Origin: a virus
Lineage: Duplodnaviria > Caudoviricetes
IMG/VR virus record: IMGVR_UViG_3300025939_000002
Coordinates: 1,435-65,434 of that record
Length of the DNA: 64,000 bases
Direction: 5' to 3' (one strand)
The translations under genes were made by a program, and so were the position numbers. Shown here piece after piece: positions 48,568-61,831 of this stretch (positions are counted from its first letter, which is position 1; every line of letters begins with the position of its first letter). The notes below the pieces were generated by a model. That model made no database searches and was not told where the DNA came from. It worked only from the letters and a program-made list of their open reading frames with translations.

Positions 48568-49068
48568 CTACCTCCCGCCCTTGCCGCCCTTGCCGCCAGT
48601 GACCTTCTCGGAGTGCTCGGGGTCGACCTCGCCCGACGGCTTGCCCCCTTCGCCGCCGCCCTTGGCCGCCGCGAGCTGGGCCTCGAGGCGCCCGATCTTC
48701 TCCTGCGCCTCGGCGAGCCTCGCCTTCGTCTCGACGAGCTCGCCGGCCAAGGTGGAGGCCTGCTTGCGGGCGGCGTCGAGGGCCGCCTGCGACAGCTCGG
48801 AGACCGTCTCGCCGTCGGCGAGCACCCGCAGGACCGGGTCCGTCATGATCTGCGTCTCGAAGACCTTGCGCGAGATGCGCGTCGGGTGAGGCTGCTTCGC
48901 GATGTACTTCTTGCCGGCCCCGTCGACCTTCTCGACGTCGACCGTCGGGTCCGCCTCGTCCTCGACGACCTCGACGGGGACCGCCTGGCCCGAGGGCCAG
49001 AAGCGACCGGCGCGCGGGCGATAGGAGAAGCCCTCGCGCGCGAGGGCCTGGATCTGCACGATCTTCAT
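48568..49068 (-). CDS. Mu gp35/HI1506-like protein
   Basis: GFSYRPRAGRFW...DPVLRV; ATGA overlap at 49065-49068. Confidence 0.6.
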   Translation of the reverse strand: MKIVQIQALAREGFSYRPRAGRFWPSGQAVPVEVVEDEADPTVDVEKVDGAGKKYIAKQPHPTRISRKVFETQIMTDPVLRVLADGETVSELSQAALDAARKQASTLAGELVETKARLAEAQEKIGRLEAQLAAAKGGGEGGKPSGEVDPEHSEKVTGGKGGKGGR

Positions 49069-50006
49069 GGCGTGCACTTGATGGCGAGGAAGGGCAGGCC
49101 GTAGCCACCGGTGCCCCGCGCCTCGACGCCCCTGGTCCACTTACGCAGGTTGAAGACGATCGGGTTCTGCGGATCGATCATTTGCACCGGCGTCGGCGGC
49201 TGCCGCTGCTGGAAGATGAGCGGCTTGATGCGATCGGTGCTGAGGAGGTACCAGGCCTTGTCGGTGTCGTCGACGAGGCGCGGGTTGATGATCGGCACCA
49301 CCTCGCCCATGTTGACGTTCGAGGCCGCCGCCGATGCGACGTTCTCGGATCCGGCGACGTTCTTCGCGATCTGCGCGATGAGCGACCCCTGGCAGATCTC
49401 GAGGGCGATCTCCCGCAGCTTGGGCCCCACCATCAGGACCGACGGCTGCACCTCGAGCGGCTTGCCGGACTCACCCCGGAAGCTCTGCATCGTCGCGTAG
49501 GCGAGGTTGAAGTTCGCCTGGGTGAGGGCCGTGGTCGTCAGCAGATTCGCGTAGGTCCCCTGGCTGGAGTCGTCGAGGTCGACCGGGTGGTCGGTGTCGA
49601 AGAAGAACTGCCCGTCGAAGCAGGTGGCCGTGGTCCCCTTGATGAGGACGTCGGTCATGAGGTCGTCGGGCCAGCGGTTCGCCGCGTCCCCCAGTAGCTC
49701 CTCGCGCCGCCCGTAGATCCCCGCCGTGTCGTCGGAGATGTCGTTCCGGTCGATCTCGTACGTATCCTCCCAGTCGTCGTTGACGAGGGCGTACGAGCGC
49801 GACGCGATGTTGCGCGCCATCTTCGGGCCGACCCACTTGCGCAGGCCGGGCAGCTCGGCGAGCCACGCGTAGACGTTCTGCTTCGTGGCCGACGGGACGG
49901 TCTCGGCGAACTGCGAGAAGTACTGCTTGCGGCGCTGGTACCCCGCCTGGTACCGCATGTCGAGCTGCTGGAAGAACGTCGCCAGCGTTGAAGTCGTGAT
50001 GTCCAT
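49065..50006 (-). CDS. major capsid protein (Mu gpT-like)
   Basis: YAWLAELPGLRKW; DDTAGIY; CFDGQFFFDTDHP; WYLLSTDRIKPLIFQQR. Confidence 0.92.
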   Translation of the reverse strand: MDITTSTLATFFQQLDMRYQAGYQRRKQYFSQFAETVPSATKQNVYAWLAELPGLRKWVGPKMARNIASRSYALVNDDWEDTYEIDRNDISDDTAGIYGRREELLGDAANRWPDDLMTDVLIKGTTATCFDGQFFFDTDHPVDLDDSSQGTYANLLTTTALTQANFNLAYATMQSFRGESGKPLEVQPSVLMVGPKLREIALEICQGSLIAQIAKNVAGSENVASAAASNVNMGEVVPIINPRLVDDTDKAWYLLSTDRIKPLIFQQRQPPTPVQMIDPQNPIVFNLRKWTRGVEARGTGGYGLPFLAIKCTP

Positions 50007-50852: not shown

Positions 50853-51962
50853 TCAGACGCTGGCGAGGAGCGCCGCCTTGGCCTTCTCCTCGACCTGCTT
50901 CCGCTTGAACGCCAGGACCTGCTCGAGGTCGTGGCCCATCATCTTGGCGACCTTGATGTCGTCGGCGGTGAGCGCCACCTCGCCGACCGCCTTCTCCGTC
51001 GGGCCGCCGGCGCCGCCGGGGTTGACGACCTTCGGGGCCGCGCCCCACTTGCCCGTCAGCCACTCGACGCCCTCCTTCGAGGGCTTGCCGCCGCCGAACG
51101 CCAGCGCCGCCTTCTCCTCGTGCGGGCGCATCGCGGGCGGCAGCTTGCCGTCCTTGATCGCGGCGTCGAGGACGTCCTTGACCTGCGCGGTGAGGGCCGC
51201 CGCCTGCTCCGCGGCCCGCTCGGCCTCGAGTTGGTCGGTGCGGGCCGCCTTCGCCTTCCACCCCTCGACCACGCCCAGGGCGCCGGCCTCGGACGCCTGG
51301 CCCGTGAGGGCGACCATCTTGTCGCGCACGCCGGTGAGCGCGGTCATCTTCGCCTCCTTGTCGTCGTCCTTCTTCTCGAAGGCGGAGAGCTTCTGCTTCA
51401 GCGCCGAGCACTCCTCCTCGGTGGACTTCAGCCTCGCGCTCAGGGCGGTGCAGTTCTCGCAGGCCATGTCGTCTTCCTTTCGGGCAGTGGCGGCCACGAG
51501 CGGTTCGAGCTCGTCCATGGCCGGGTCGTTCGTCAGCGCGATGTTCTTCAGGCGGATCACCCGGCGGGTGTTCTCGTCGAAGAACAAGATCGGGGAGAAG
51601 TAGCGGTACTCGGGCGCGCCCTTGTCGGGGGCGAGCATCGCCGTCGCCCGGGCTGTCCAGGCCACCTCGGTCGCCCAGAGCTCGCCGCCGCGGACCTCGG
51701 GCTTGAACCACCCCGCGGCGGGCTTGGCGGCGTCGCCCCCGCCGGGCGGCGGCTGGACCGACTGGTGCTCGTAGTCGATCTGGACCTTGGGCAGGCCCTT
51801 GGCCCGGAACGACTCCATCACGAGGCCGGCGGCCTCGTCGTCGAAGAGGAACTCGCCCTTCTCGGTCTTGTTCAGCCCGGCCCGGAGGATCCGGAACTCG
51901 GTCGGGGCCCCACCTCCCGCTTCGAGCGGGAGGGCCACGAGCGCCAGCGACGCGAGCTTCAC
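50853..51962 (-). CDS. Mu gpI-like prohead protease/scaffold
   Basis: IDYEHQ; AAGWF; WTARA..M...EYRYFSP; ALTNDPAM; coiled scaffold C-terminus. Confidence 0.9.
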   Translation of the reverse strand: MKLASLALVALPLEAGGGAPTEFRILRAGLNKTEKGEFLFDDEAAGLVMESFRAKGLPKVQIDYEHQSVQPPPGGGDAAKPAAGWFKPEVRGGELWATEVAWTARATAMLAPDKGAPEYRYFSPILFFDENTRRVIRLKNIALTNDPAMDELEPLVAATARKEDDMACENCTALSARLKSTEEECSALKQKLSAFEKKDDDKEAKMTALTGVRDKMVALTGQASEAGALGVVEGWKAKAARTDQLEAERAAEQAAALTAQVKDVLDAAIKDGKLPPAMRPHEEKAALAFGGGKPSKEGVEWLTGKWGAAPKVVNPGGAGGPTEKAVGEVALTADDIKVAKMMGHDLEQVLAFKRKQVEEKAKAALLASV

Positions 51963-52257: not shown

Positions 52258-53868
52258 TTACCGGTACTCTTCCCCCTTGACAATCCGCCCGACCCACCTG
52301 TCCAAATCTGCAATCCTTTCCGGCACTGCCGTCTCGGACAGCATGTAGTCGTGCAGCATGCGCGAGACGTTGTCGACGATCCGCGTGTATTCAGGGTGAT
52401 TACCCTTGATGCCGTGCTTGTCGAGGATGCCGCGGGTAAACAGGCCGTAGCGGTGGTCGTCGCCCTCGTAGGCCGGTAGCCGCTTTACCTGCAGGGCCCG
52501 CCCGGCGACGTGGCGCTCGAACGCGGGATCGGCTGCCGAGACGCCATCGACGTACGAGACGAGCTGGGCGAAGGACTTCACGAAGTTCGGGTAGGCGGTC
52601 ATGCGGCTCAAGACGGGCTTGCCGTCGACATCCGCAAACATCGGAGGCTCGTGCCCGAGCGAATTGTGCAGCCCGAGGCGGGCCTGGTACCTGCGGTTGT
52701 AGTGCTGGGCGAGGATCTCCGTCGTCGCCTCCTCCATCGCAATGCGATTGCCGGTGTAGCGGTAGTCGGGTGTCGAGGCGGCGTGGAACTGCTCGTGCAG
52801 CAGGATCTCGATCGCATTGTCCTCCCGGGGCGTGCGAACCGCGCCCCGAACGATGACGTCTCGGATCCGTTTCGCGATATCCGGCCGCAGCTCGACGGGC
52901 CCCCAGTTGTACTGACCGGCCACGCCGGGCGGCAGGTTGTAGTTGACCTTGTGGGTGACGACGGTGAAGCCCTTGCCGGTAAGGCCGCAGACCAGCTCAG
53001 CCGACGCCCGCTTGAGCTCGGCGTCGTTGTCGGCGAAGAACAGATCCGTCGTCGCCGCCCCGCTCGTGCGCTCCCACTGAAACGGCGACGCCTCGGGCAG
53101 CTCCGGCGCAAGCTCGGACGGCACCCGGGGAAAGGCCGCGGGGTGCTCGGGTTCCGGCTCGGGCTCGACCTCGTTGGCGGGGGCGCTCTCGAGCTTGCCC
53201 TCGAGCAGCTCGCCGATCGGCTCGGGGTAGTCCTTCGTGTCGGGCTCCCAGTCGTCGCCGCCGAGGCCCGGCTGCCGCCCGAACCCCTCGTCCGCGTCGA
53301 CGTCCGGCGCCTCATCGTCGACCCCCTCGTCCTTCGCCTCCTCCTCGCTGAGGGGCACGAGCACCGATCGACAGTTGAAATGCAACGGGGGCGTGTGCGC
53401 GTGCCAGAACGGATCATCGGCGGGCCGTATGACGCCGTCTAGCGCCTGGCAGATCTCCGAAGTCCTCGAGTCCATCACGGCGTCAAAGCGCCAGAACGGC
53501 CGCGCCTTCTTCACCTCGGGGTGGTTCAAGATCTCGTGCCGGCCGGCGTTGTAGGCCCCCAGCGCGTTCGTCCGGAAGATCGTCTCGAGCCGCGCGGGGT
53601 CCTTCTTCCCCCAGGCGGCCTCGAGCTTCTCGCCGATCTGCGCCTTGAAGTCGGCGAGGGTGGTGCCGTCCTTGATCGCCCGGTCCATCGCCCCCCAGGC
53701 GTCGGTGGCGAGGTCGGCCTGGGCGACGCCCGAGACCTTGAAGGCCATCTCGCGCTCGGCCTCGGTGAGGGCGTCCCACTTCCAGTCGGGCATGGGGACG
53801 CGGCGGCGGAAGGCGCGGACCGCCTCCTCGAACGCGTCCGGGTCGTCGGTGACGTCAACCTTGCTCAT
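52258..53868 (-). CDS. MuF (gpF) minor head protein with C-terminal zincin-like peptidase domain
   Basis: RLETIFRTN; PFWRFDAVMDSRTS..C; FWHAHTPPLHFNCRS; C-terminal LLHEQFH...EEATTE. Confidence 0.88.
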   Translation of the reverse strand: MSKVDVTDDPDAFEEAVRAFRRRVPMPDWKWDALTEAEREMAFKVSGVAQADLATDAWGAMDRAIKDGTTLADFKAQIGEKLEAAWGKKDPARLETIFRTNALGAYNAGRHEILNHPEVKKARPFWRFDAVMDSRTSEICQALDGVIRPADDPFWHAHTPPLHFNCRSVLVPLSEEEAKDEGVDDEAPDVDADEGFGRQPGLGGDDWEPDTKDYPEPIGELLEGKLESAPANEVEPEPEPEHPAAFPRVPSELAPELPEASPFQWERTSGAATTDLFFADNDAELKRASAELVCGLTGKGFTVVTHKVNYNLPPGVAGQYNWGPVELRPDIAKRIRDVIVRGAVRTPREDNAIEILLHEQFHAASTPDYRYTGNRIAMEEATTEILAQHYNRRYQARLGLHNSLGHEPPMFADVDGKPVLSRMTAYPNFVKSFAQLVSYVDGVSAADPAFERHVAGRALQVKRLPAYEGDDHRYGLFTRGILDKHGIKGNHPEYTRIVDNVSRMLHDYMLSETAVPERIADLDRWVGRIVKGEEYR

Positions 53869-53986
53869 AGCGGGCGGATGCCGGGGCCGGCCCGGACTAC
53901 CTGCGCGGTTGCAGTACGGGAGGCCCGTTCCCCGTGCTCATTCCAGATGCCGCCCCACCTGGTTCTCTCGCCTCCCCGGGAGAAAT

Positions 53987-54205
53987 CTAGGCTCCGTGCT
54001 TCTCGGCCTGAATCTTGGCCGCCTCTTTGCCGTTGTCGGCGATCCCCTGGCCGACGAGGTAAGCCATGACGAGCTCGACCACCCACTTCTTGCGGTCGGG
54101 GTCGAGGGCGGTGTCGGGGACCAGCGCGATGGCGGCGCCGACGATCGTGGCGGTCAGCTTCTTGTGGCCCCAGCACCAGGCGCGGATGGCGGCGAGCACC
54201 CTCAT
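53987..54205 (-). CDS. holin-like small membrane protein
   Basis: KKLTATIVGAAIAL...LVMAYLVGQGIAD. Confidence 0.55.
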   Translation of the reverse strand: MRVLAAIRAWCWGHKKLTATIVGAAIALVPDTALDPDRKKWVVELVMAYLVGQGIADNGKEAAKIQAEKHGA

Positions 54206-54380
54206 GCCCGGGATCGTCCTGCTGGAGCGGAGGGCGCCCAAGATCGTGCTGCGGGCCCGCGAGTCGAACGCGGTGTCTCCGGTGGTGAACCGGCGGGGTG
54301 CCGTCCCCCTCAGCCCGCACGCAACCCAGGGGCGCGACGGGCGAGGGCTCCCCCGCCGGCCCAGCCCCCGGGCGGCACGC

Positions 54381-54710
54381 TCACCCGGAGGCGATCCGGC
54401 TCGGCCGCTTGCCGAGGGCACGCGTTCTCCATCTGTCGAGGTGGCGCCGGTGCGCCTTGCTGTTCCGCCTCCGACGCGGCGATGCCGCCCGTGGGGCCGG
54501 CGGGTGCCCCACGAAGAACCGGAACTCGGCCCGGCGCTCCAGCGCCTTGAGGGCCTGCCACGTCTCCCGGTCCCCGGGGGTGGCGTGCGGGTCGGCGACG
54601 CAGGCGAAGCCGGCCGAGGGCGCGTCGCACGTGCAGGCGGCCGCCGTCGCCGCCACAGTGATGGTGGAGGTAGTCGCGTTGTACGCGGGCGGCACGTAGT
54701 AGACGGCCAT
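54381..54710 (-). CDS. hypothetical protein
   Basis: TGATG coupling at 54710. Confidence 0.45.
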   Translation of the reverse strand: MAVYYVPPAYNATTSTITVAATAAACTCDAPSAGFACVADPHATPGDRETWQALKALERRAEFRFFVGHPPAPRAASPRRRRNSKAHRRHLDRWRTRALGKRPSRIASG

Positions 54711-54817
54711 CACCGCGGCCACCGCTTCGCGAGGTAGACGATCGCCCAGACGTAGGCCCCCAGGGCGCCGAGGCCGACGCAGGCGAGGCCGCCGAGGATG
54801 CAGAGGGCGACCTTCAC
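54710..54817 (-). CDS. 35-aa single-TM peptide
   Basis: MKVALCILGGLACVGLGALGAYVWAIVYLAKRWPR, read by hand. Confidence 0.5.
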   Translation of the reverse strand: MKVALCILGGLACVGLGALGAYVWAIVYLAKRWPR

Positions 54818-54821
54818 CGGC

Positions 54822-55094
54822 TCAGGCCTTGTCGAAGATCGAGACGCCGTCCCGCGCGTACTGAAGGACCTTCCCGAGTCGCATCCGCGCGTCCTCCAGG
54901 TGGCGGACCGCCAGCATCGACTGGGCGATCATCTCGCCGTGCTGGCCGGGGAAGGCGTCGGCGCCCTGGAAGTCCTCGCGCGCCTTGAACGCGCGCACCG
55001 TCTTCTCGAGGGTGAGCAGCTCGCCGCGAAGCCGGTCGCAGAGCGACTTGAGGTCCTTGAGGCCGGCGCGCAGGAGGTCGGGCTCGGGGTTCAC
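54822..55094 (-). CDS. small helical phage protein
   Basis: MLAVRHLEDARMRLGKVLQ...GVSIFDK. Confidence 0.65.
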   Translation of the reverse strand: MNPEPDLLRAGLKDLKSLCDRLRGELLTLEKTVRAFKAREDFQGADAFPGQHGEMIAQSMLAVRHLEDARMRLGKVLQYARDGVSIFDKA

Positions 55095-55357
55095 GCCAAG
55101 ACCTTGGTGTAGCTGTATTCCAGCTTCACCGAGACGCTGCGGTTCTTCTCCACGCCGTCCTCGGTGTAGCCCGATCCCCCGGCCTCGAGCTTGATCAGGA
55201 TGTCGGTCGGCGCGAAGTTCTGCCGGACCAGCGCCACCAGGTGTGGCGCCGCCGCTTCGTACTCGACCTTGCTCTGCCCGGACAGGCTGCCCGCGTACTC
55301 CTCCAGCGCGGCGGCCACCTTTTCAGGCACTCCGATCATCGACACGCTCCAGCTCAT
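55091..55357 (-). CDS. hypothetical protein
   Basis: AAGGAG RBS. Confidence 0.6.
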   Translation of the reverse strand: MSWSVSMIGVPEKVAAALEEYAGSLSGQSKVEYEAAAPHLVALVRQNFAPTDILIKLEAGGSGYTEDGVEKNRSVSVKLEYSYTKVLA

Positions 55358-55372
55358 GATCGCTCCTTCCGT

Positions 55373-57616
55373 TCAAACGTCTTTGACCGCGGCGAGCTGC
55401 CCGCCGAGGTTCGCCATGATCCGCGCCTTGGCAACGATGCTCGCCAAGCGCTTGGGGTCCATCCCCTTGTAGGCGGTGACGATCCGGTGCCGCAGGTCAT
55501 CCCAGCTCGTCGCCGCGTCGATCTGCTCCTTGATGGCGGCGAGATCCACCGCGAGTGCCCGCGCCGCGAGCTGCTTCGCCCGGTCCGCCACGGCGTCGGC
55601 GTAGAGGCGCGCCCGGCGCTGCCCCGCCGGCGTCCGCAGAGCCCGCAGCGCCGCGACCCGCTGGGCGCTCGCCCGGTTCGCGAAGGCGAGGAGGGCGTCG
55701 ACGGTGTCCTGGTGCTCGGCGAGGGCCTCGGCGGCGAGGGCCGTCGCGCGGATCTTCCCGGTGCCGGTCCGCCGCTTGAGCTTTCGCTTGAAGTCGTCGA
55801 GGGCGATCACCGACATCCCGCCGAAGGCCCCCTCGTCGTTCCGGTGGGCGAGGAACGCCGCCTTCGCCGCGTCGGCCGTCGGGAAGCCCAGGAAGACCTT
55901 GTCCTCGTCGTGCTTCGCGAAGTCGGGGGCGAGCCGCTGGTGGACGACGTAGACGTGGTCGGCCGTGGGGTCGGGCCCGATGTAGCAGTCGAGCTCCTCG
56001 TCGTCGCCCGAGAGGTGGCCCTCGATGTAGCCGTAGTCGTGCTGCATCGTCGTCGAGCCGATGGTCCCGCCGCCGGGGCCGGGCTCGCGCCAGAGGCGGA
56101 TGCTGCCGGCCGGGTTCTCGACGGCGATCGGTAGCCCCTGGAACTCGTAGCGCTTCACGGGGGGCGGCAGGGGGATGCGGGCGGTCACCGAAAGCGCGTC
56201 GCCCTTCGCCGCGGGCGGCGGGGGCGGCCTCCCCTGACCGTCCCCGCCGCCGTTGGCCATGTCGCTCCCCTGTCCAGATCCCTGCTGCATCGCCTCGAGC
56301 CGGGCCTGCGCCTCCTCGGCGGCGACCGCCTTCTGCGCGGCCTCCTCCTCCTCGGTAATCATCGGGACGCCCGCGCGGTCGAGGATCGTCCGCACGTCGA
56401 TGGGCGCCGCGGCGGTCTTCATCGCGTTGAGGGCGTCGCCGAGCATCTTCAGCGCGGTCCCCTCCTGCACCTCGTCGGCGGGCGGCTCGACCTGGTACTC
56501 CGGGCGCGGGGCGAGCTCGGCGTCGCCGTAGTTGTAGAGGGCCCACCAGGTGAGGACCTGCTGGCGGATGCATTCGGCGATGCCGGCGTCCTCGATCGCC
56601 TTGTCGATGCGAACGAGGTTCTGGACCTGGCCCAGCGCCCGGCTGCCGCCGTCGGTGCCGCCCTCGGTGGTGAGGTTCTGCCCGAGGACGGCGATGGCGA
56701 TGTCGACGTCCAGCTCCTTCTTGAACTGCTGGAACGTCTCCCAGTTCCGGGTCTTCGACTCGATCATCTCCATCCCGAACGAGGCGCCCTCGCCCTCGTC
56801 CATCTGGGGCAGCTCGAGGACGGCGTCGGAGCCGATGTTGGCGATGTCGCGGACGAACTTGTCCTTGATCTTCTCGTCGGCGGTGACGGGCACCTTCGCG
56901 CCGAAGGTCGCCATCCCTTGGCGCTCGTTCGACCGCGCCCAGTCGCGGTAGTCCCAGCCGCGCATCAGGTACTTGTCGGCGAGGGCGCGGACGAGGCCGT
57001 CGAGCCAGCCGTACTGGTAGCCGTAGGGCGTCCAAAGCACCCAGTTGCCGTCGCTCATGGGCTCCATGTCGACGCGAGGGAGGCGGACGATCCCCTCGCG
57101 CGCGACGACCACGTACTGCATCTCGCCCGCGTCCCAGTAGAGGAACTGCGGGTGCCAGACCCGCAGGCGCGGCAGCCACTCGCCGGCCGACGTCTGCCAG
57201 ACGATCTGGGCTATGCCGATGCCGAGGGCGTTGCCCCAGGCCGACAGCGACTTGATCACCGCGGGGGGGCAGATCCGCTCCCACAAGCCGTGCTCGTCCT
57301 CGCCGTCGCCCGAGAGCTCCTTGGCGGCCCGCGCCGCCTTCGCCTTGCCGTTGGCCGGCTTGATCTCAAGGGGGGCGGCGACGAGGGCCCCGACCCGGGT
57401 GGCGGTGACGCCGCGGATGCGGTCGTCGCGCTTCATCGCGTCCCACAACTTCGCCGAGTTGCCGAACTGCCCGAGGTCGTGCTGCCACAGGACGCTTTGA
57501 ATGCCCGCGACCGTGTCGACGCCGGCGATGGTGGATATCGGGACGTCCGTGAACGCTTGGCGGCGCGGCGCGGGCACTATGCGCCGATGATCCGGCGGGC
57601 CCCGAGGCGCCTCCAC
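55373..57616 (-). CDS. portal protein (DUF935, Mu gp29-like) with inserted InPase-like domain
   Basis: WARSNERQG; IAVLGQNLTT; GSRALGQVQ; extra domain about 55775-56157. Confidence 0.88.
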   Translation of the reverse strand: MEAPRGPPDHRRIVPAPRRQAFTDVPISTIAGVDTVAGIQSVLWQHDLGQFGNSAKLWDAMKRDDRIRGVTATRVGALVAAPLEIKPANGKAKAARAAKELSGDGEDEHGLWERICPPAVIKSLSAWGNALGIGIAQIVWQTSAGEWLPRLRVWHPQFLYWDAGEMQYVVVAREGIVRLPRVDMEPMSDGNWVLWTPYGYQYGWLDGLVRALADKYLMRGWDYRDWARSNERQGMATFGAKVPVTADEKIKDKFVRDIANIGSDAVLELPQMDEGEGASFGMEMIESKTRNWETFQQFKKELDVDIAIAVLGQNLTTEGGTDGGSRALGQVQNLVRIDKAIEDAGIAECIRQQVLTWWALYNYGDAELAPRPEYQVEPPADEVQEGTALKMLGDALNAMKTAAAPIDVRTILDRAGVPMITEEEEAAQKAVAAEEAQARLEAMQQGSGQGSDMANGGGDGQGRPPPPPAAKGDALSVTARIPLPPPVKRYEFQGLPIAVENPAGSIRLWREPGPGGGTIGSTTMQHDYGYIEGHLSGDDEELDCYIGPDPTADHVYVVHQRLAPDFAKHDEDKVFLGFPTADAAKAAFLAHRNDEGAFGGMSVIALDDFKRKLKRRTGTGKIRATALAAEALAEHQDTVDALLAFANRASAQRVAALRALRTPAGQRRARLYADAVADRAKQLAARALAVDLAAIKEQIDAATSWDDLRHRIVTAYKGMDPKRLASIVAKARIMANLGGQLAAVKDV

Positions 57617-57617
57617 T

Positions 57618-59066
57618 TCAGATGCGGCGGGGTCGCAGCGGCCCCTCGCGGCTCGTCCCCGTGATGGCCTTCTGGTACCCGGTGTTCCAGGCGTGAGCGA
57701 GGGCGTCGACCTGGTCGTCGTGCGCGTCCTTGACGCCGGTGAACCGGGAGATCTCGGCGAGGAAGTCCTTCAGCCACTTTACCGGCTGCGCCTGGGTGGG
57801 AATGGGCACGAGGACCCGCCCGCCGTTCCAGGCGGCGGCCACGGGCTGCGCCCGCTGGAACTTGTCGCCGAGGGCGGTGATCTCCTTGATGCGCAGCTCG
57901 GGGTCGGCCTCGCGGAGGAGCTGCGGGACCACCTTGAAGGCGCCGTTGGACTCGACGGCGACCTTCGGGTTGCCGTAGCGGATCTGCCAGGCGCGCAGGT
58001 CCCGCGCGAACTGCGGGATGGTCACCTGCTCCCGGTAGAAGTCGAGGACGTAGGCGCGGGTGTCGATCCCGCGGCCGACCATCGCGAGGACGCAGATCGT
58101 GCTGTAGTCGGCGGTGGTGTCGTCGCTGGCGGCCTCGTCGGAGGCGAGGATGATTCGGCAGCCGGTAAGGTCGAGGCGGCTCTGGTCGTAGTAGTGCTCG
58201 GTCCCGAACACCGTCGCGCCGCGCGGGATGGGCCGGCCCTGGTAGAGGGCCGAGAACTCGAACTCGCCGATCTCGCCCCGAATCTCGGTGAACTCCTTGA
58301 CCGGGTACATCGAGGGCCAGAGCGCCTCGCCGGGCTCGCGGCCGAGGGGGTCGTCGCCGCCCGCGAGGGCGGGGAGGTTGATCACCTCCCAGCCGTCCTT
58401 TTCGGCGAGGCGGCCGATGAGGTCGTCCTGATGCCAGCGGGTCTGGACGATGAGGATCGAGGCGTTCTCGATGCGGGTCCGCGCGACCGTCGTGTAGAAC
58501 GACCAGACCGCCTCGCGGTTCGCCTCGCTGTTCGCGTCCTGCCTGGACTTGAAGGGGTCGTCGAAGACGCAGAGGCCGGTGATGCGCTGGCCGGTGACCC
58601 GGCCATCGACGCCGGCGGCGAGGAGGCCCCCGCCGTCGGTCGTGCGCCACTCGGCGCCCGACCACGTGTAGGGGTCGAGCTCGACGCCCGCCTCCTCGGC
58701 GATCTGTCGGGCGATCTTCGACTTGCCCCAGGCCTGCCGGTCGGCGTACGAAAGGTACGCGCAGGTGTCGGAGGGGGTCGCGGCGAGCCACCACGCGATA
58801 GCGCGCAGGATGGTCAGCGTCTTCGCGTGACCGGGCGGCATCGAGATGCAGGCGCGCACCCGCTCGCGGCGGGCGCGCTCGAGGAGCTCGATCAGGGGGG
58901 CGAGGTGGCGCGGGACGGGCGCGTGCTCGGGCGCCGTGCGCTCGATGAACTCCCGGAGGGACTCGCGCCCGCCGGCAAGCTCGGCGTCGATGGCCTGGAG
59001 GCGGCGGATCTCCGCGGGGGTCAGACCGTCGAGATCGTCGTCGGCGGTCTCAGGCCGGGCCGCCAT
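57618..59066 (-). CDS. terL: terminase large subunit
   Basis: ISMPPGHAKT; CVFDDPFK; QTRWHQDDL; ASDEA; HDDQVDA. Confidence 0.93.
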   Translation of the reverse strand: MAARPETADDDLDGLTPAEIRRLQAIDAELAGGRESLREFIERTAPEHAPVPRHLAPLIELLERARRERVRACISMPPGHAKTLTILRAIAWWLAATPSDTCAYLSYADRQAWGKSKIARQIAEEAGVELDPYTWSGAEWRTTDGGGLLAAGVDGRVTGQRITGLCVFDDPFKSRQDANSEANREAVWSFYTTVARTRIENASILIVQTRWHQDDLIGRLAEKDGWEVINLPALAGGDDPLGREPGEALWPSMYPVKEFTEIRGEIGEFEFSALYQGRPIPRGATVFGTEHYYDQSRLDLTGCRIILASDEAASDDTTADYSTICVLAMVGRGIDTRAYVLDFYREQVTIPQFARDLRAWQIRYGNPKVAVESNGAFKVVPQLLREADPELRIKEITALGDKFQRAQPVAAAWNGGRVLVPIPTQAQPVKWLKDFLAEISRFTGVKDAHDDQVDALAHAWNTGYQKAITGTSREGPLRPRRI

Positions 59067-59091: not shown

Positions 59092-59310
59092 TCACCGCTG
59101 GCGCAGGGAGGCGGCGACCTTCGCGGCCCGGGCCTTCTCGCGCTCGATGCGGGCCGGCGCCGACGCCCGCCAGCCGGCGAGGAGAGCGTCGCCCTCCTTG
59201 CCCACCAGGACGTGCCCGAGCTTCTCCTCGAAGTGGATCTGGATCGTGCGGAAGTCCGCCCCCTTCGTTGCGAGCCGGCAGGCCTCTTCCGCGATCGCCC
59301 GTTCATCCAT
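59092..59310 (-). CDS. hypothetical protein
   Basis: 72-aa ORF overlapping the methylase stop. Confidence 0.5.
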   Translation of the reverse strand: MDERAIAEEACRLATKGADFRTIQIHFEEKLGHVLVGKEGDALLAGWRASAPARIEREKARAAKVAASLRQR

Positions 59311-61831
59311 TCCCAGACTGTAAGGAGGCGGCCGGATCCTGCTCCAGGGGAATCGCGGAGAGCGGCAAGTCCATTGCGATTCTCCCGCCAGCGTCGGCGG
59401 CCCGGCGTGGATCGCCCTTGCAAAAGACGAGGACGTTCTGGTGGGTCTTGCCGAGCTTGCGCGACGTCTCGAACTGCTTTCCGGTTCGAAGCGGCAAGCT
59501 CCCGACGGCGGTGACCAGGACGGCCTCGTTGTAGAGGCGGGCGCCCGCCGCCTCGAACGCCGCGATCGTCTCGCTTACGAAGCCGCGATAGAAGCCCTTC
59601 TTGTCGCGAACGTCGCCGACGCAAAAGCAGGCGAAGCGGTCGTCGCGCAGGCGCCCGACGGCCGCGGCGATGATTTGCCGGTAGGCCTCCACGAACGCCG
59701 GGTAGTCCATCGTCGACAGATCCCGGGGGTCGTCGCTGTAGACCTCGAGATCGGCGTACGGGGGACACGAGAAGACGAGGTCAGCAGCGAAGTCCGCCGG
59801 CAGAACCTTCGCCAACTCGCGGGCGTCGGCTACGTGCCAGACGGGCATCGGCGCGGCGATCACCGTCGGCAGGGACGGCGCCCCGGCCCCGGGCGCCCCG
59901 GCGTCAACCGATCGGCGGGCGAGGAAATAGAGGCAGTCGCCCTCCTCGGCGAAGGCGGCGAGCTTGCCCTCGTAGTAGGGATCGCATGGGACGCCATCGA
60001 TGGCGTCGAACGGGACGCGGGCCTCGTAGTCCATCCCCGACGGGACGAGCCTGACCCGCTTGCGCCAGCCGGCGGGCGCGTGGCGGTCGAGGACCTTCGA
60101 GGGGTCCTTGCCGATGCAGACCCCCAGGACGGGGACGGAGCTGCGGCCGGCGTCGTCGAGGCCGTGCAGGATGGCCGCGAGGCCCGTACCCGAGCCGACG
60201 GCCACCACGATCCGCCGAGCGTCGGGGGGGAGGTTGGCGGCCTGGGGCCGGTTGGCCGCGATGTAGTCGAAGCTCTCGAGGCCGAGCTCGAGGAACCGCC
60301 AGCCGCGCCGCTTGGCGTCCGCCCGGGCCTTCGTCTGAAGGGGGGCGAGGTAGGTGACGTCGCCCTTGATGACCTCCGCCCCGTGCGCCTTGGCGTCGAT
60401 CTCCTGGTCGGTCCAACTCTTCGACTTCGCTGTCCAGACCCGGCAGGGGATGCCGGCGGCCTCGGCGAGGCGGGCGGTGCGCGAGACCATCGGCGAGTGC
60501 CGGTTGCCGGCCGTAACGAACCCGGCGGCGCCCTGGGCGAGGATCCGCCCGGCGCGGGCCTTCGACCCGCGAACGCCATTGAGGACGAAGGCATCGTCGC
60601 GCTTGATCCATACCCGGGCGCCCGAGGGCATCCTCGCGCGGACCACCGGCGTAAGCGCGGCGGGGTCGGTTACGTCGCCGGCGCGGTCGTGGTCGATCGT
60701 CGGCAGGGACGACGGCTGCACGCCGGGGCGGCTGAGGATGCTGCGGCCCTGCTCGCGGTTGGCCTCGACCTGTTCGGGGCGAAGCTCGATCCCGACGTAC
60801 TGGCGGCCGAGCTTGGCGGCGACGATGCCGCGAACCGAGCCGCCGGCGAAGGGGTCGAGGATCACGCCGCCGGGAGGCGAGAACCACGAGTAGGCGAGCT
60901 CGCAGAGGACGGGGTCGAAGATGGACGTGCCGGACTGAGGCTGGGCCTCTAGAATCTTCCGGCTCGTGTCGTCGAGGGCGTCAGGGTCCCGGGCGCCCGC
61001 CACCCAGGTGAGGCGGTTCTGTCCCACCACGTGCTCGCCCCGCATGAGGTCTTGTCCGGAGGTCCGGGCAAGACCTCGCCCCTTGCCGTCGCCCCGGACC
61101 GTCTTGCCGTCCCTGCCGAGGCTTGCCGCGGGACGAGGCGAGCCTCCCGGCGATGCGCGCTTGCCGCCGCGGTTTCCCGCCCACGGGGAGGCACCTCCGT
61201 CCTCGGAGGTGCCTCCCGCGATGATCGCGTCGCCCCGCCCCAGCTCGCTCTTGATCCCCAGCGCCAGCCACGCCCGCTTCCGGTCCTGCCAGTAGCCCTG
61301 GCGGGCGTCGAGGACCGAGAACGGCGGGATGCCGAAGCGCTCGGCGAGCGCGCCGGCGCCGGTCCCGGGCGCCGCTTCGGGCTCGGGTAGCCCGGCCTCG
61401 AGCGTCGCCTGCAGGGCGTCGAGGCGCAGGCCTGCGTAGTCGACGTCGTCGTCGATCGCCTTGAGCTGGGCGAGGGCCTCGGGGGTGTATTCGCCCTGGA
61501 GGTGCGGGTTGTTCGCGACGAGGTTCGCCGCCCGCTGCTTCGAAGGATCCCAGTCGACGATGCGGATCGGGAACTCCGCGCCCGTCTTCGGGTGGGCGAT
61601 CATCCCTCGGGTCTTCGACAGCCGGCGCCAGGTCTTCGCCCCCGCGGCCCGGAGCTGCGCCATCCGCTGGTGCCCCGCCACGAACTCCCCCGTCCGCTCG
61701 TTCCAGGTGATCCCGGCGATGTCGTCGAAGGTTTCCATCGACACCCCGAGGCCGGTCGCCGCCTCGGGCTTCATGACGCGGGGGTTGGCGGGGTCCGGCT
61801 TGAGCAGCTCGATCGATTCTTCCTTCGCCAT
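59303..61831 (-). CDS. ParB-N + DNA amino-methyltransferase with inserted PLP-dependent (PALP/ACC deaminase-like) domain
   Basis: ParB: PANPR...VAGHQR. MTase motif I: LDPFAGGS...GIEL. PALP insert: LTP..IKRDD..GSKAR, AVGSGTG, DPYYEGK. MTase motif IV: FSCPPY. Confidence 0.85.
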   Translation of the reverse strand: MAKEESIELLKPDPANPRVMKPEAATGLGVSMETFDDIAGITWNERTGEFVAGHQRMAQLRAAGAKTWRRLSKTRGMIAHPKTGAEFPIRIVDWDPSKQRAANLVANNPHLQGEYTPEALAQLKAIDDDVDYAGLRLDALQATLEAGLPEPEAAPGTGAGALAERFGIPPFSVLDARQGYWQDRKRAWLALGIKSELGRGDAIIAGGTSEDGGASPWAGNRGGKRASPGGSPRPAASLGRDGKTVRGDGKGRGLARTSGQDLMRGEHVVGQNRLTWVAGARDPDALDDTSRKILEAQPQSGTSIFDPVLCELAYSWFSPPGGVILDPFAGGSVRGIVAAKLGRQYVGIELRPEQVEANREQGRSILSRPGVQPSSLPTIDHDRAGDVTDPAALTPVVRARMPSGARVWIKRDDAFVLNGVRGSKARAGRILAQGAAGFVTAGNRHSPMVSRTARLAEAAGIPCRVWTAKSKSWTDQEIDAKAHGAEVIKGDVTYLAPLQTKARADAKRRGWRFLELGLESFDYIAANRPQAANLPPDARRIVVAVGSGTGLAAILHGLDDAGRSSVPVLGVCIGKDPSKVLDRHAPAGWRKRVRLVPSGMDYEARVPFDAIDGVPCDPYYEGKLAAFAEEGDCLYFLARRSVDAGAPGAGAPSLPTVIAAPMPVWHVADARELAKVLPADFAADLVFSCPPYADLEVYSDDPRDLSTMDYPAFVEAYRQIIAAAVGRLRDDRFACFCVGDVRDKKGFYRGFVSETIAAFEAAGARLYNEAVLVTAVGSLPLRTGKQFETSRKLGKTHQNVLVFCKGDPRRAADAGGRIAMDLPLSAIPLEQDPAASLQSGNG

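Follow-up and report, generated by a model that had tools for sequence, protein, structure and literature searches.

The InPase domain (PF18823) is known as a phage-specific domain of polyvalent proteins (PMC5512222), and its fusion to portal proteins has been described before, with BcepF1.124 as the cited example and with the suggestion that the domain is injected into the host (Iyer et al. 2017, PMC5512222). Pfam analysis here confirms that BcepF1.124 consists of Phage_portal_3 and InPase, and the same pair is found in gp19 of Pseudomonas phage Pa193 (PDB 9b41) and in a gene of Serratia phage Hera. In these proteins of Pbunavirus, Bcepfunavirus and Myosmarvirus, PF18823 follows the crown, within a C-terminal extension that is long and poorly ordered. 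The portal proteins gp29 of Mu (gpH, 512 amino acids (aa)) and gp32 of Pseudomonas phage JBD30 (526 aa) carry no enzymatic insert. Here, we describe the portal gene of a virus of the Caudoviricetes (IMG/VR record IMGVR_UViG_3300025939_000002), which encodes a Mu-type portal protein with an InPase domain inserted between its core and its conserved C-terminal tail. The window analysed is a stretch of 64,000 nucleotides (positions 1,435 to 65,434 of the record) with a G+C content of 70–72% throughout, and it covers nearly all of the record, which is a complete virus of 65,434 bp with direct terminal repeats.

The portal protein of the window shares with the Pbunavirus-type fusions the InPase domain after the crown and the head-module context, in which genes for a MuF-like protein and a prohead protease lie downstream, and its InPase segment aligns with residues 635–751 of Pa193 gp19 (E 3e-12), where InPase spans residues 635–753. 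In contrast, the Pbunavirus-type portals belong to Phage_portal_3 (PF06381), whereas the portal of the window belongs to Portal_Mu (PF06074), and InPase is near-terminal in the former, with 12–68 residues after it, whereas here it is internal and is followed by a hinge of 44 aa and a tail of 88 aa. Mu gp29 and JBD30 gp32 are of the same portal family and have C-terminal segments homologous to this tail, although their identity to the core is low and is detected by profile only (E 1e-20 to 5e-27). The arrangement follows the same logic as MuF-effector fusions and polyvalent proteins, in which an enzyme is hitched to a head-internal protein for packaging; relatives of the portal InPase occur in proteins of 1000–2500 aa beside 2H, GNAT, DRAT and Acb1-like domains. 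Unlike these, the portal protein brings a single cargo domain within an essential structural protein at a fixed 12 copies, and the phage has a separate long MuF protein. Polyvalent proteins have 2–15 conflict-related effector domains and, as a rule, a processing peptidase or another signature domain (Iyer et al. 2017), whereas the portal protein has one enzymatic domain and shows no further effector match to Pfam or PHROG. The portal carries a polyvalent-protein domain and is not itself a polyvalent protein.

InPase domain within the portal protein

A first-pass annotation, made from the letters of the window alone, had named the host protein a DUF935 portal, and profile searches bear this out. 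Residues 56–396 match PF06074 (Portal_Mu) with an E-value of 2.2e-47 (162 bits against a cut-off of 23.9), the first half of the protein matches the portal family PHROG 113 (E 6e-39), and the portal-family profile aligns with the solved portals of JBD30 (8rka, E 5.5e-27) and Mu (9khx, E 1.3e-20). The AlphaFold2 (AF2) model of the core has a predicted local distance difference test (pLDDT) score mostly above 90. Together with the adjoining large terminase gene and the Mu-like head module, the profile match makes the protein a member of Portal_Mu/DUF935. The open reading frame (ORF) has 747 codons, and since an identical database protein (P0002) is 734 aa long, the real start is likely to be V14, a GTG codon at 57577, which gives a product of 734 aa.

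The same annotation had placed an InPase-like domain at 55775–56157, which coincides with the PF18823 envelope found by the Pfam search that it had proposed (residues 488–614, profile positions 12–135 of 135). The match has an E-value of 1.3e-26 and 93.5 bits within the whole protein and of 2.4e-28 and 99.1 bits for the segment alone, against a gathering cut-off of 26.8 bits. All of the quoted motifs are in frame on the minus strand: FQGLPIAV at residues 492–499, TMQHDYGYIEG at 523–533, DDEELDCYIGP at 538–548, VYVVHQ at 555–560 and HDEDKVFLGF at 569–578. The PHROG families that match the segment are annotated as minor head protein, virion structural protein or DarB-like antirestriction protein, or have no function given. 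The profile score, the acidic metal ligands and the location in a virion-associated phage protein all agree with PF18823. The profile of the classical inorganic pyrophosphatases (PPases), PF00719, gives no match on the portal protein even at E ≤ 1, and in the related Hera portal it scores below threshold, at 19.2 bits against a cut-off of 23.5.

In an AF2 model of residues 440–747 built with 42 homologues, with which a separate full-length model agrees, residues 487–615 form an eight-stranded barrel with two helices at a pLDDT above 90. The best-scoring Foldseek matches of this domain in the PDB are family I PPases without exception (best E 4e-4, probability 1.0), and all 50 rows returned by VIA-align are family I PPases from bacteria, archaea and eukaryotes, with Z-scores of 6.2–7.1 and root-mean-square deviations (rmsd) of 3.1–5.0 Å over 103–121 residues. 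Since Z is below 8, the support that these values give to a family I PPase fold is moderate, and its weight comes from the uniformity of the list and from the sequence evidence. In common with family I PPases (PF00719; EC 3.6.1.1; E. coli Ppa, M. tuberculosis Rv3628), the modelled domain has an oligonucleotide/oligosaccharide-binding (OB) fold barrel, a YGY...D-x-[DE]-x-x-D motif and a second acidic cluster with a lysine. It differs from them in being a compact barrel of about 129 aa, to which only about 110 of the 160–175 residues of a PPase can be aligned, in being tethered within a virion protein rather than forming a free hexamer, and perhaps also in its substrate, which may not be inorganic pyrophosphate (PPi).

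The active site of the family I PPase of E. coli comprises E20, K29, E31, R43, Y51, Y55, D65, D67, D70, D97, D102, K104, Y141 and K142. Alignment with E. coli Ppa by hhalign pairs Y528, D538, E540 and D543 of the portal protein with Y55, D65, D67 and D70, respectively, with Glu in place of D67. Judging from motif and strand order, E500 and R507 probably correspond to E20 and K29, and D570-E571-D572-K573 to D97/D102/K104, so that the candidate catalytic residues are E500, R507, Y528, D538, E540, D543, D570, E571, D572 and K573. No counterparts of E31, R43 and Y51 were identified in the portal InPase. A longer hhalign alignment to E. coli Ppa, which extends past the core motif, conflicts with the order of strands in the model, and no residues were assigned from it. 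E500, R507, Y528, D543, Q560, E571 and K573 do not vary among 50 diverse InPase proteins, and D538 and D570 hardly do; over 43 portal-type homologues the same seven residues are invariant together with D538, D570, H591 and R592. Such constancy between InPase proteins that differ widely in architecture speaks for a catalytic site that is maintained. Four conserved acidic residues have been assigned to metal coordination in InPase, and the phage clade has been reported to lack the β-hairpin between strands 1 and 2 of classical PPases, with nucleotide-like substrates being suggested (Iyer et al. 2017, PMC5512222); the present model is a compact barrel of eight strands. A safe description of the InPase is that of a predicted metal-dependent phosphoanhydride hydrolase.

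The domain is set into the portal rather than attached to its end. The alignment of relatives reads from the core through a variable Gly/Pro-rich linker and a slot to a tail of 80–100 aa, and none of the 58 aligned relatives lacks the tail, whether its slot is filled or empty. The family profile aligns the tail with residues 408–518 of the 526 of the JBD30 portal and with residues 475–510 of the 512 of Mu gp29, in a colinear manner up to the extreme C-terminus. Because relatives without InPase retain the tail, and because the JBD30 and Mu portals end in a segment that aligns with it, the InPase is a true insertion within the portal and not a terminal fusion, as read from these alignments. This agrees with the earlier reading, in which the domain is followed by the C-terminus of a normal portal: length and sequence of the helical tail are conserved in InPase-less relatives, and its alignment with the JBD30 and Mu ends is weak. 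A search with the tail alone found close relatives and nothing further. The Gln/Gly/Pro linker that the annotation had noted before the domain is also present, as residues 446–486, with 49% Gly, Pro and Gln; it is modelled as disordered (pLDDT 35–42), with pLDDT below 50 over residues 448–480, and relatives have linkers of 18 to 112 aa. The hinge behind the domain, 23–90 aa long among relatives, contains a helix at residues 629–657 in the AF2 model and has an isoelectric point (pI) of 10.6; the pI is 10.4 for the tail and 5.2 for the InPase.

Several database proteins of 240–270 aa start just before the InPase, which raised the possibility that InPase and tail form a split or frameshifted separate gene. 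This was rejected, as core, InPase and tail are one ORF in all 14 of the InPase-bearing loci among 80 classified IMG/VR loci, and the same holds for each metagenome locus for which upstream sequence is available. At least two of the short InPase forms are fragments at contig edges (L154, L156). There is one real alternative arrangement, in a soil phage contig (L148:1057-2844, the same as L086), where InPase, a portal-type tail and about 340 aa make up an ORF of their own of 595 aa, and so the InPase-tail unit can exist apart from the portal core. On one side, this 595-aa gene is flanked by an ORF with a DRAT-like ADP-ribosyltransferase domain, and on the other by the genes for MuF and the gpI protease.

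Distribution of InPase portals and contents of the slot

The first-pass annotation had regarded placement of InPase in the portal rather than in MuF as unusual, and this view did not survive the survey. Portal fusions were already published, as for BcepF1.124, and a tblastn search with the segment finds InPase in 466 records of a collection of 50,697 phage records. Pseudomonas phages account for 293 of the 466, most of the genes bear the annotation 'minor head protein', and most of the phages are of the Pbunavirus type; the three genes that were checked are portals. Carriage by DUF935 portals, whose frequency the annotation had asked for, is not unusual either. Of the 118 homologous clusters (at 90% identity), at least 80 show the exact Portal_Mu+InPase architecture, down to 39% identity, and one of these bears the JGI name 'gp29-like protein/inorganic pyrophosphatase', and InPase is found in 14 of the 80 nearest IMG/VR portal loci. 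An exhaustive HMMER search found 9,046 clusters (at 50% identity) with an InPase domain, and a Mu-type portal core is present in 37 of the best 150. No Mu-type portal with InPase was found in the 50,697-genome phage collection at E ≤ 1e-10, where the closest Mu-type portal, that of Myxococcus phage Mx4, matches residues 23–421 only, and a scan of bacterial genome contigs found only one close relative, in a metagenome-assembled genome of Phenylobacterium; no Mu-type carrier among cultured phages was found. The finding mainly adds a second portal family to the published class of portal–InPase fusions, which are common in phage databases. To our knowledge, the PF06074 fusion, the internal position and the exchangeable slot are not described in the papers searched.

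The slot between crown and tail is not reserved for InPase. Two Mu-type portals (P0098, P0099) carry NUDIX (PF00293, E 1.5e-20), which is also a hydrolase of pyrophosphate bonds, in the same position. An unrelated third domain of about 130 aa, 88–95% identical among its carriers, fills the slot in P0104, P0106, P0109, L060 (6449–6934), L061, L064 and L066, and it gave no Pfam hit and no informative protein-atlas match. In many relatives, such as P0084 and P0091, the slot is empty. Another of them, P0105, has a portal core nearly identical to those of the carriers of this third domain, which implies a very recent gain or loss. When 123 portal cores are placed in a maximum-likelihood tree, nearly all of the 82 that carry InPase group in one subtree of 94 members, with empty-slot portals nested among them, and at least eight changes of slot state are needed, of which five are forced by well-supported branches; the sample is biased to relatives of the query and the root is not known, so that gains and losses cannot be separated. 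The cargo of the slot has been gained or lost repeatedly and is dispensable in evolution. In P0082, a Mu-type portal without InPase, residues 461–508 show a weak similarity to P-loop kinase-like families (AAA_28/AAA_18, E 0.04–0.1) and may be a nucleotide-related cargo.

Outside the Mu-type portals, InPase is found at the N-terminus of Mu-like_Pro proteases, in Phage_portal_3 portals and in polyvalent proteins with 2H, Acb1-like, GNAT and DRAT domains, and the common theme of these hosts is attachment to proteins that enter the procapsid. In about ten proteins of 630–800 aa (P0157, P0158, P0162 and others), InPase stands at the extreme N-terminus and is followed by Mu-like_Pro, an alternative way of loading the procapsid. 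The closest InPase of a cultured phage is a free-standing ORF of 169 aa in Bordetella phage PHB04 (L002:1283-4426), with 43% identity; its gene cluster also encodes a Ser/Thr phosphatase and a RelA/SpoT-like (p)ppGpp synthetase/hydrolase, and a very large gene for an N-6 DNA methylase follows shortly downstream.

Location, release and possible function of the InPase

Both the crown and the wing of the JBD30 portal lie inside the capsid (PMC11445458). Since this is the arrangement in solved Mu-type portals, the parts of the portal C-terminal of the crown would point into the head, and the InPase would face the head interior. The virion structure of Mu lacks the last 124 residues of gp29, an absence that has been attributed to cleavage by protease I with reference to Grimaud 1996 (PMC11915804), and the missing region corresponds to everything after about residue 400 of the portal described here. 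Likewise, no density is present for residues 529–765 of the Pa193 portal in the virion map, in which the domain is not commented on (PMC11456595); these residues include its InPase. The Pa193 and Mu precedents fit a cargo inside the capsid that is either flexibly tethered or released by protease, without deciding between the two.

We propose that the dodecameric portal of this complete 65-kb tailed phage with a Mu-like head module carries the InPase, a trimmed relative of family I inorganic pyrophosphatases spliced in on flexible linkers, in up to 12 copies in the head interior, where it is probably active. The twelve copies per virion that had been predicted earlier follow from the portal stoichiometry. 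The InPase would be accessory cargo and would not belong to the packaging machinery. Most likely, it enters the head as the portal is assembled, and it may be freed through C-terminal trimming of the portal by the gpI-type prohead protease, of the kind reported for Mu. Once inside a new host cell, the InPase may remove PPi in favour of early nucleic-acid synthesis, or it may destroy a nucleotide-derived host signal. Use of InPase in counter-defence or early infection is a published hypothesis (PMC5512222) and is plausible here. On the whole, we consider it fairly probable that the InPase is a dispensable, capsid-carried phosphoanhydride hydrolase, possibly freed by protease, which is delivered together with the DNA.

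Several points weigh against this proposal. The modelled domain resembles PPase structures moderately (Z about 7, rmsd 3–4 Å, template-modelling score about 0.45). The phage clade is reported to be without the β-hairpin (PMC5512222), and no residues equivalent to E31 and R43 were identified, so that true PPi specificity is uncertain. Mu gp29 aligns weakly with the tail, with domain scores of 1.1 and 9.0 bits, and this match depends mainly on colinearity. The missing density in Pa193 and Mu fits disorder or removal alike, and removal and breakdown of the segment by the protease ahead of DNA packaging would keep the enzyme from ever arriving in a new host. Delivery would also require that an OB domain of 14 kDa can pass, while folded, along the channel of portal and tail, and searches of the literature found no biochemical or proteomic data on any portal-borne InPase.

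A bolder form of the proposal takes the crown-to-tail segment of Mu-type portals as a general, exchangeable 'cargo bay', which would hold 12 copies of a small enzyme (InPase, NUDIX or the domain of about 130 aa) or nothing, and whose content would be freed by gpI, injected and used to hydrolyse a nucleotide immune signal or another pyrophosphate-linked molecule before phage expression. This generalization is tentative and may well prove wrong. If it is true, the phage would deliver a stoichiometrically fixed, pre-made dose of counter-defence.

It is unlikely, in our view, that the enzyme acts late in the producing cell instead, so that the fusion, uncleaved or released by protease in procapsids, would only provide late co-expression while the enzyme adjusts nucleotide or PPi pools or disarms an abortive-infection signal during morphogenesis. 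The gene does lie in the late head operon, and stand-alone small InPase genes exist in phages, such as the PHB04 ORF beside RelA/SpoT-like and phosphatase genes, but InPase is attached specifically to proteins that enter the procapsid (the portal C-terminus, the N-terminus of the gpI protease and virion polyvalent proteins), which points to packaging of the enzyme, and the copy number of a portal is very low for a metabolic enzyme. Less likely still is a loss of catalysis, which would leave the InPase as a structural spacer, a plug or an assembly chaperone in procapsid nucleation or in laying down the first layers of DNA. The reported absence of classical PPase elements such as the β-hairpin (PMC5512222) and the only moderate similarity to PPase structures would agree with such a role, and the adjoining basic tail could contact DNA. 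However, the acidic metal ligands and the Lys, Arg and Tyr residues are invariant across divergent homologues in unrelated architectures, the acidic nature of the domain itself argues against DNA binding, and a swap for NUDIX or a deletion would be unexpected of a structural element.

It is very improbable that the InPase works in head assembly or packaging, clearing PPi or nucleotides near the portal–terminase motor or in the procapsid without any part in the following infection. The anchoring of the domain to the portal, the adjoining terminase gene and the high local concentration that twelve copies would give speak for such a role, but terminase ATPases release ADP and inorganic phosphate rather than PPi, so that the PPi removal at packaging considered in the first-pass annotation has no chemical basis, the portal C-terminus would face the capsid interior whereas the terminase docks on the external clip, and the domain is evolutionarily dispensable, being repeatedly lost with the tail kept and replaced in the slot by NUDIX or an unrelated domain. 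InPase is also found in polyvalent effector proteins with domains of anti-defence type (PMC5512222), which likewise speaks against a packaging role.

Capsid-borne enzymes act before any phage transcription and are therefore prime candidates for first-strike counter-defence. The portal InPase would offer a simple system for this question, with one domain in 12 copies per virion and with close relatives that have an empty slot or NUDIX as natural controls. The tolerance of domain swaps between the Mu-type crown and the tail is also useful for the engineering of protein-delivering phages. The broader question of what the very common virion-borne InPase domains do is of more interest than this single window.

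Head-module neighbours

The genes around the portal gene on the same strand form a canonical Mu-like head module by Pfam and PHROG, and their coordinates are given in Table 1 together with those of the portal segments. The gpI homologue lies 3.4 kb downstream of the portal gene. The three small ORFs between the portal and MuF genes have no Pfam or PHROG match. The virus record contains one copy of InPase, and no classical pyrophosphatase was found in it.

Table 1. Segments of the portal gene and genes of the adjoining head module, in positions of the window
Feature	Position	Strand	Remarks
Portal gene	55373..57616	minus	747 codons from GTG at 57616; stop 55373-55375; from ORF list and translation
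Mu-type portal core (residues 56-396)	56429..57451	minus	Wing, stem, clip and start of crown; Pfam Portal_Mu
Gly/Pro/Gln-rich linker, disordered (residues 446-486)	56159..56281	minus	After the last core helix (residues 422-445)
Inserted InPase domain (residues 487-615)	55772..56158	minus	Family-I-pyrophosphatase-like OB-fold hydrolase
Hinge and long helix (residues 616-659)	55640..55771	minus	Between InPase and tail; basic, variable length
C-terminal tail (residues 660-747)	55376..55639	minus	Conserved 88-aa basic helical tail of Mu-type portals
Large terminase subunit	57618..59066	minus	Pfam Terminase_6N and Terminase_6C; PHROG 38, E 5e-84; directly upstream of portal
Three small ORFs (88, 113 and 151 aa)	53865-55357	minus	Between portal and MuF genes
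MuF-family minor head protein (536 aa)	52258..53868	minus	Pfam Phage_Mu_F, E 4e-21, residues 61-170; downstream of portal
Mu gpI-type prohead protease/scaffold	50853..51962	minus	Pfam Mu-like_Pro, E 4e-41; PHROG 328 head maturation protease
Virion protein		minus	Between the genes for the gpI-type protease and the gpT-type major capsid protein
Mu gpT-type major head protein	49065..50006	minus	Pfam Mu-like_gpT, E 8e-70

About 350 C-terminal residues of the MuF protein belong to no Pfam family and may be a second head-borne cargo beside the portal InPase. Just upstream of the terminase genes, an ORF of 842 aa on the minus strand (59303-61831) has a ParB-like N-terminus (PHROG 620/15396), and the same ORF contains an N6_N4 DNA methyltransferase domain (PF01555) and a pyridoxal-phosphate-dependent PALP domain (PF00291, residues 391–572).

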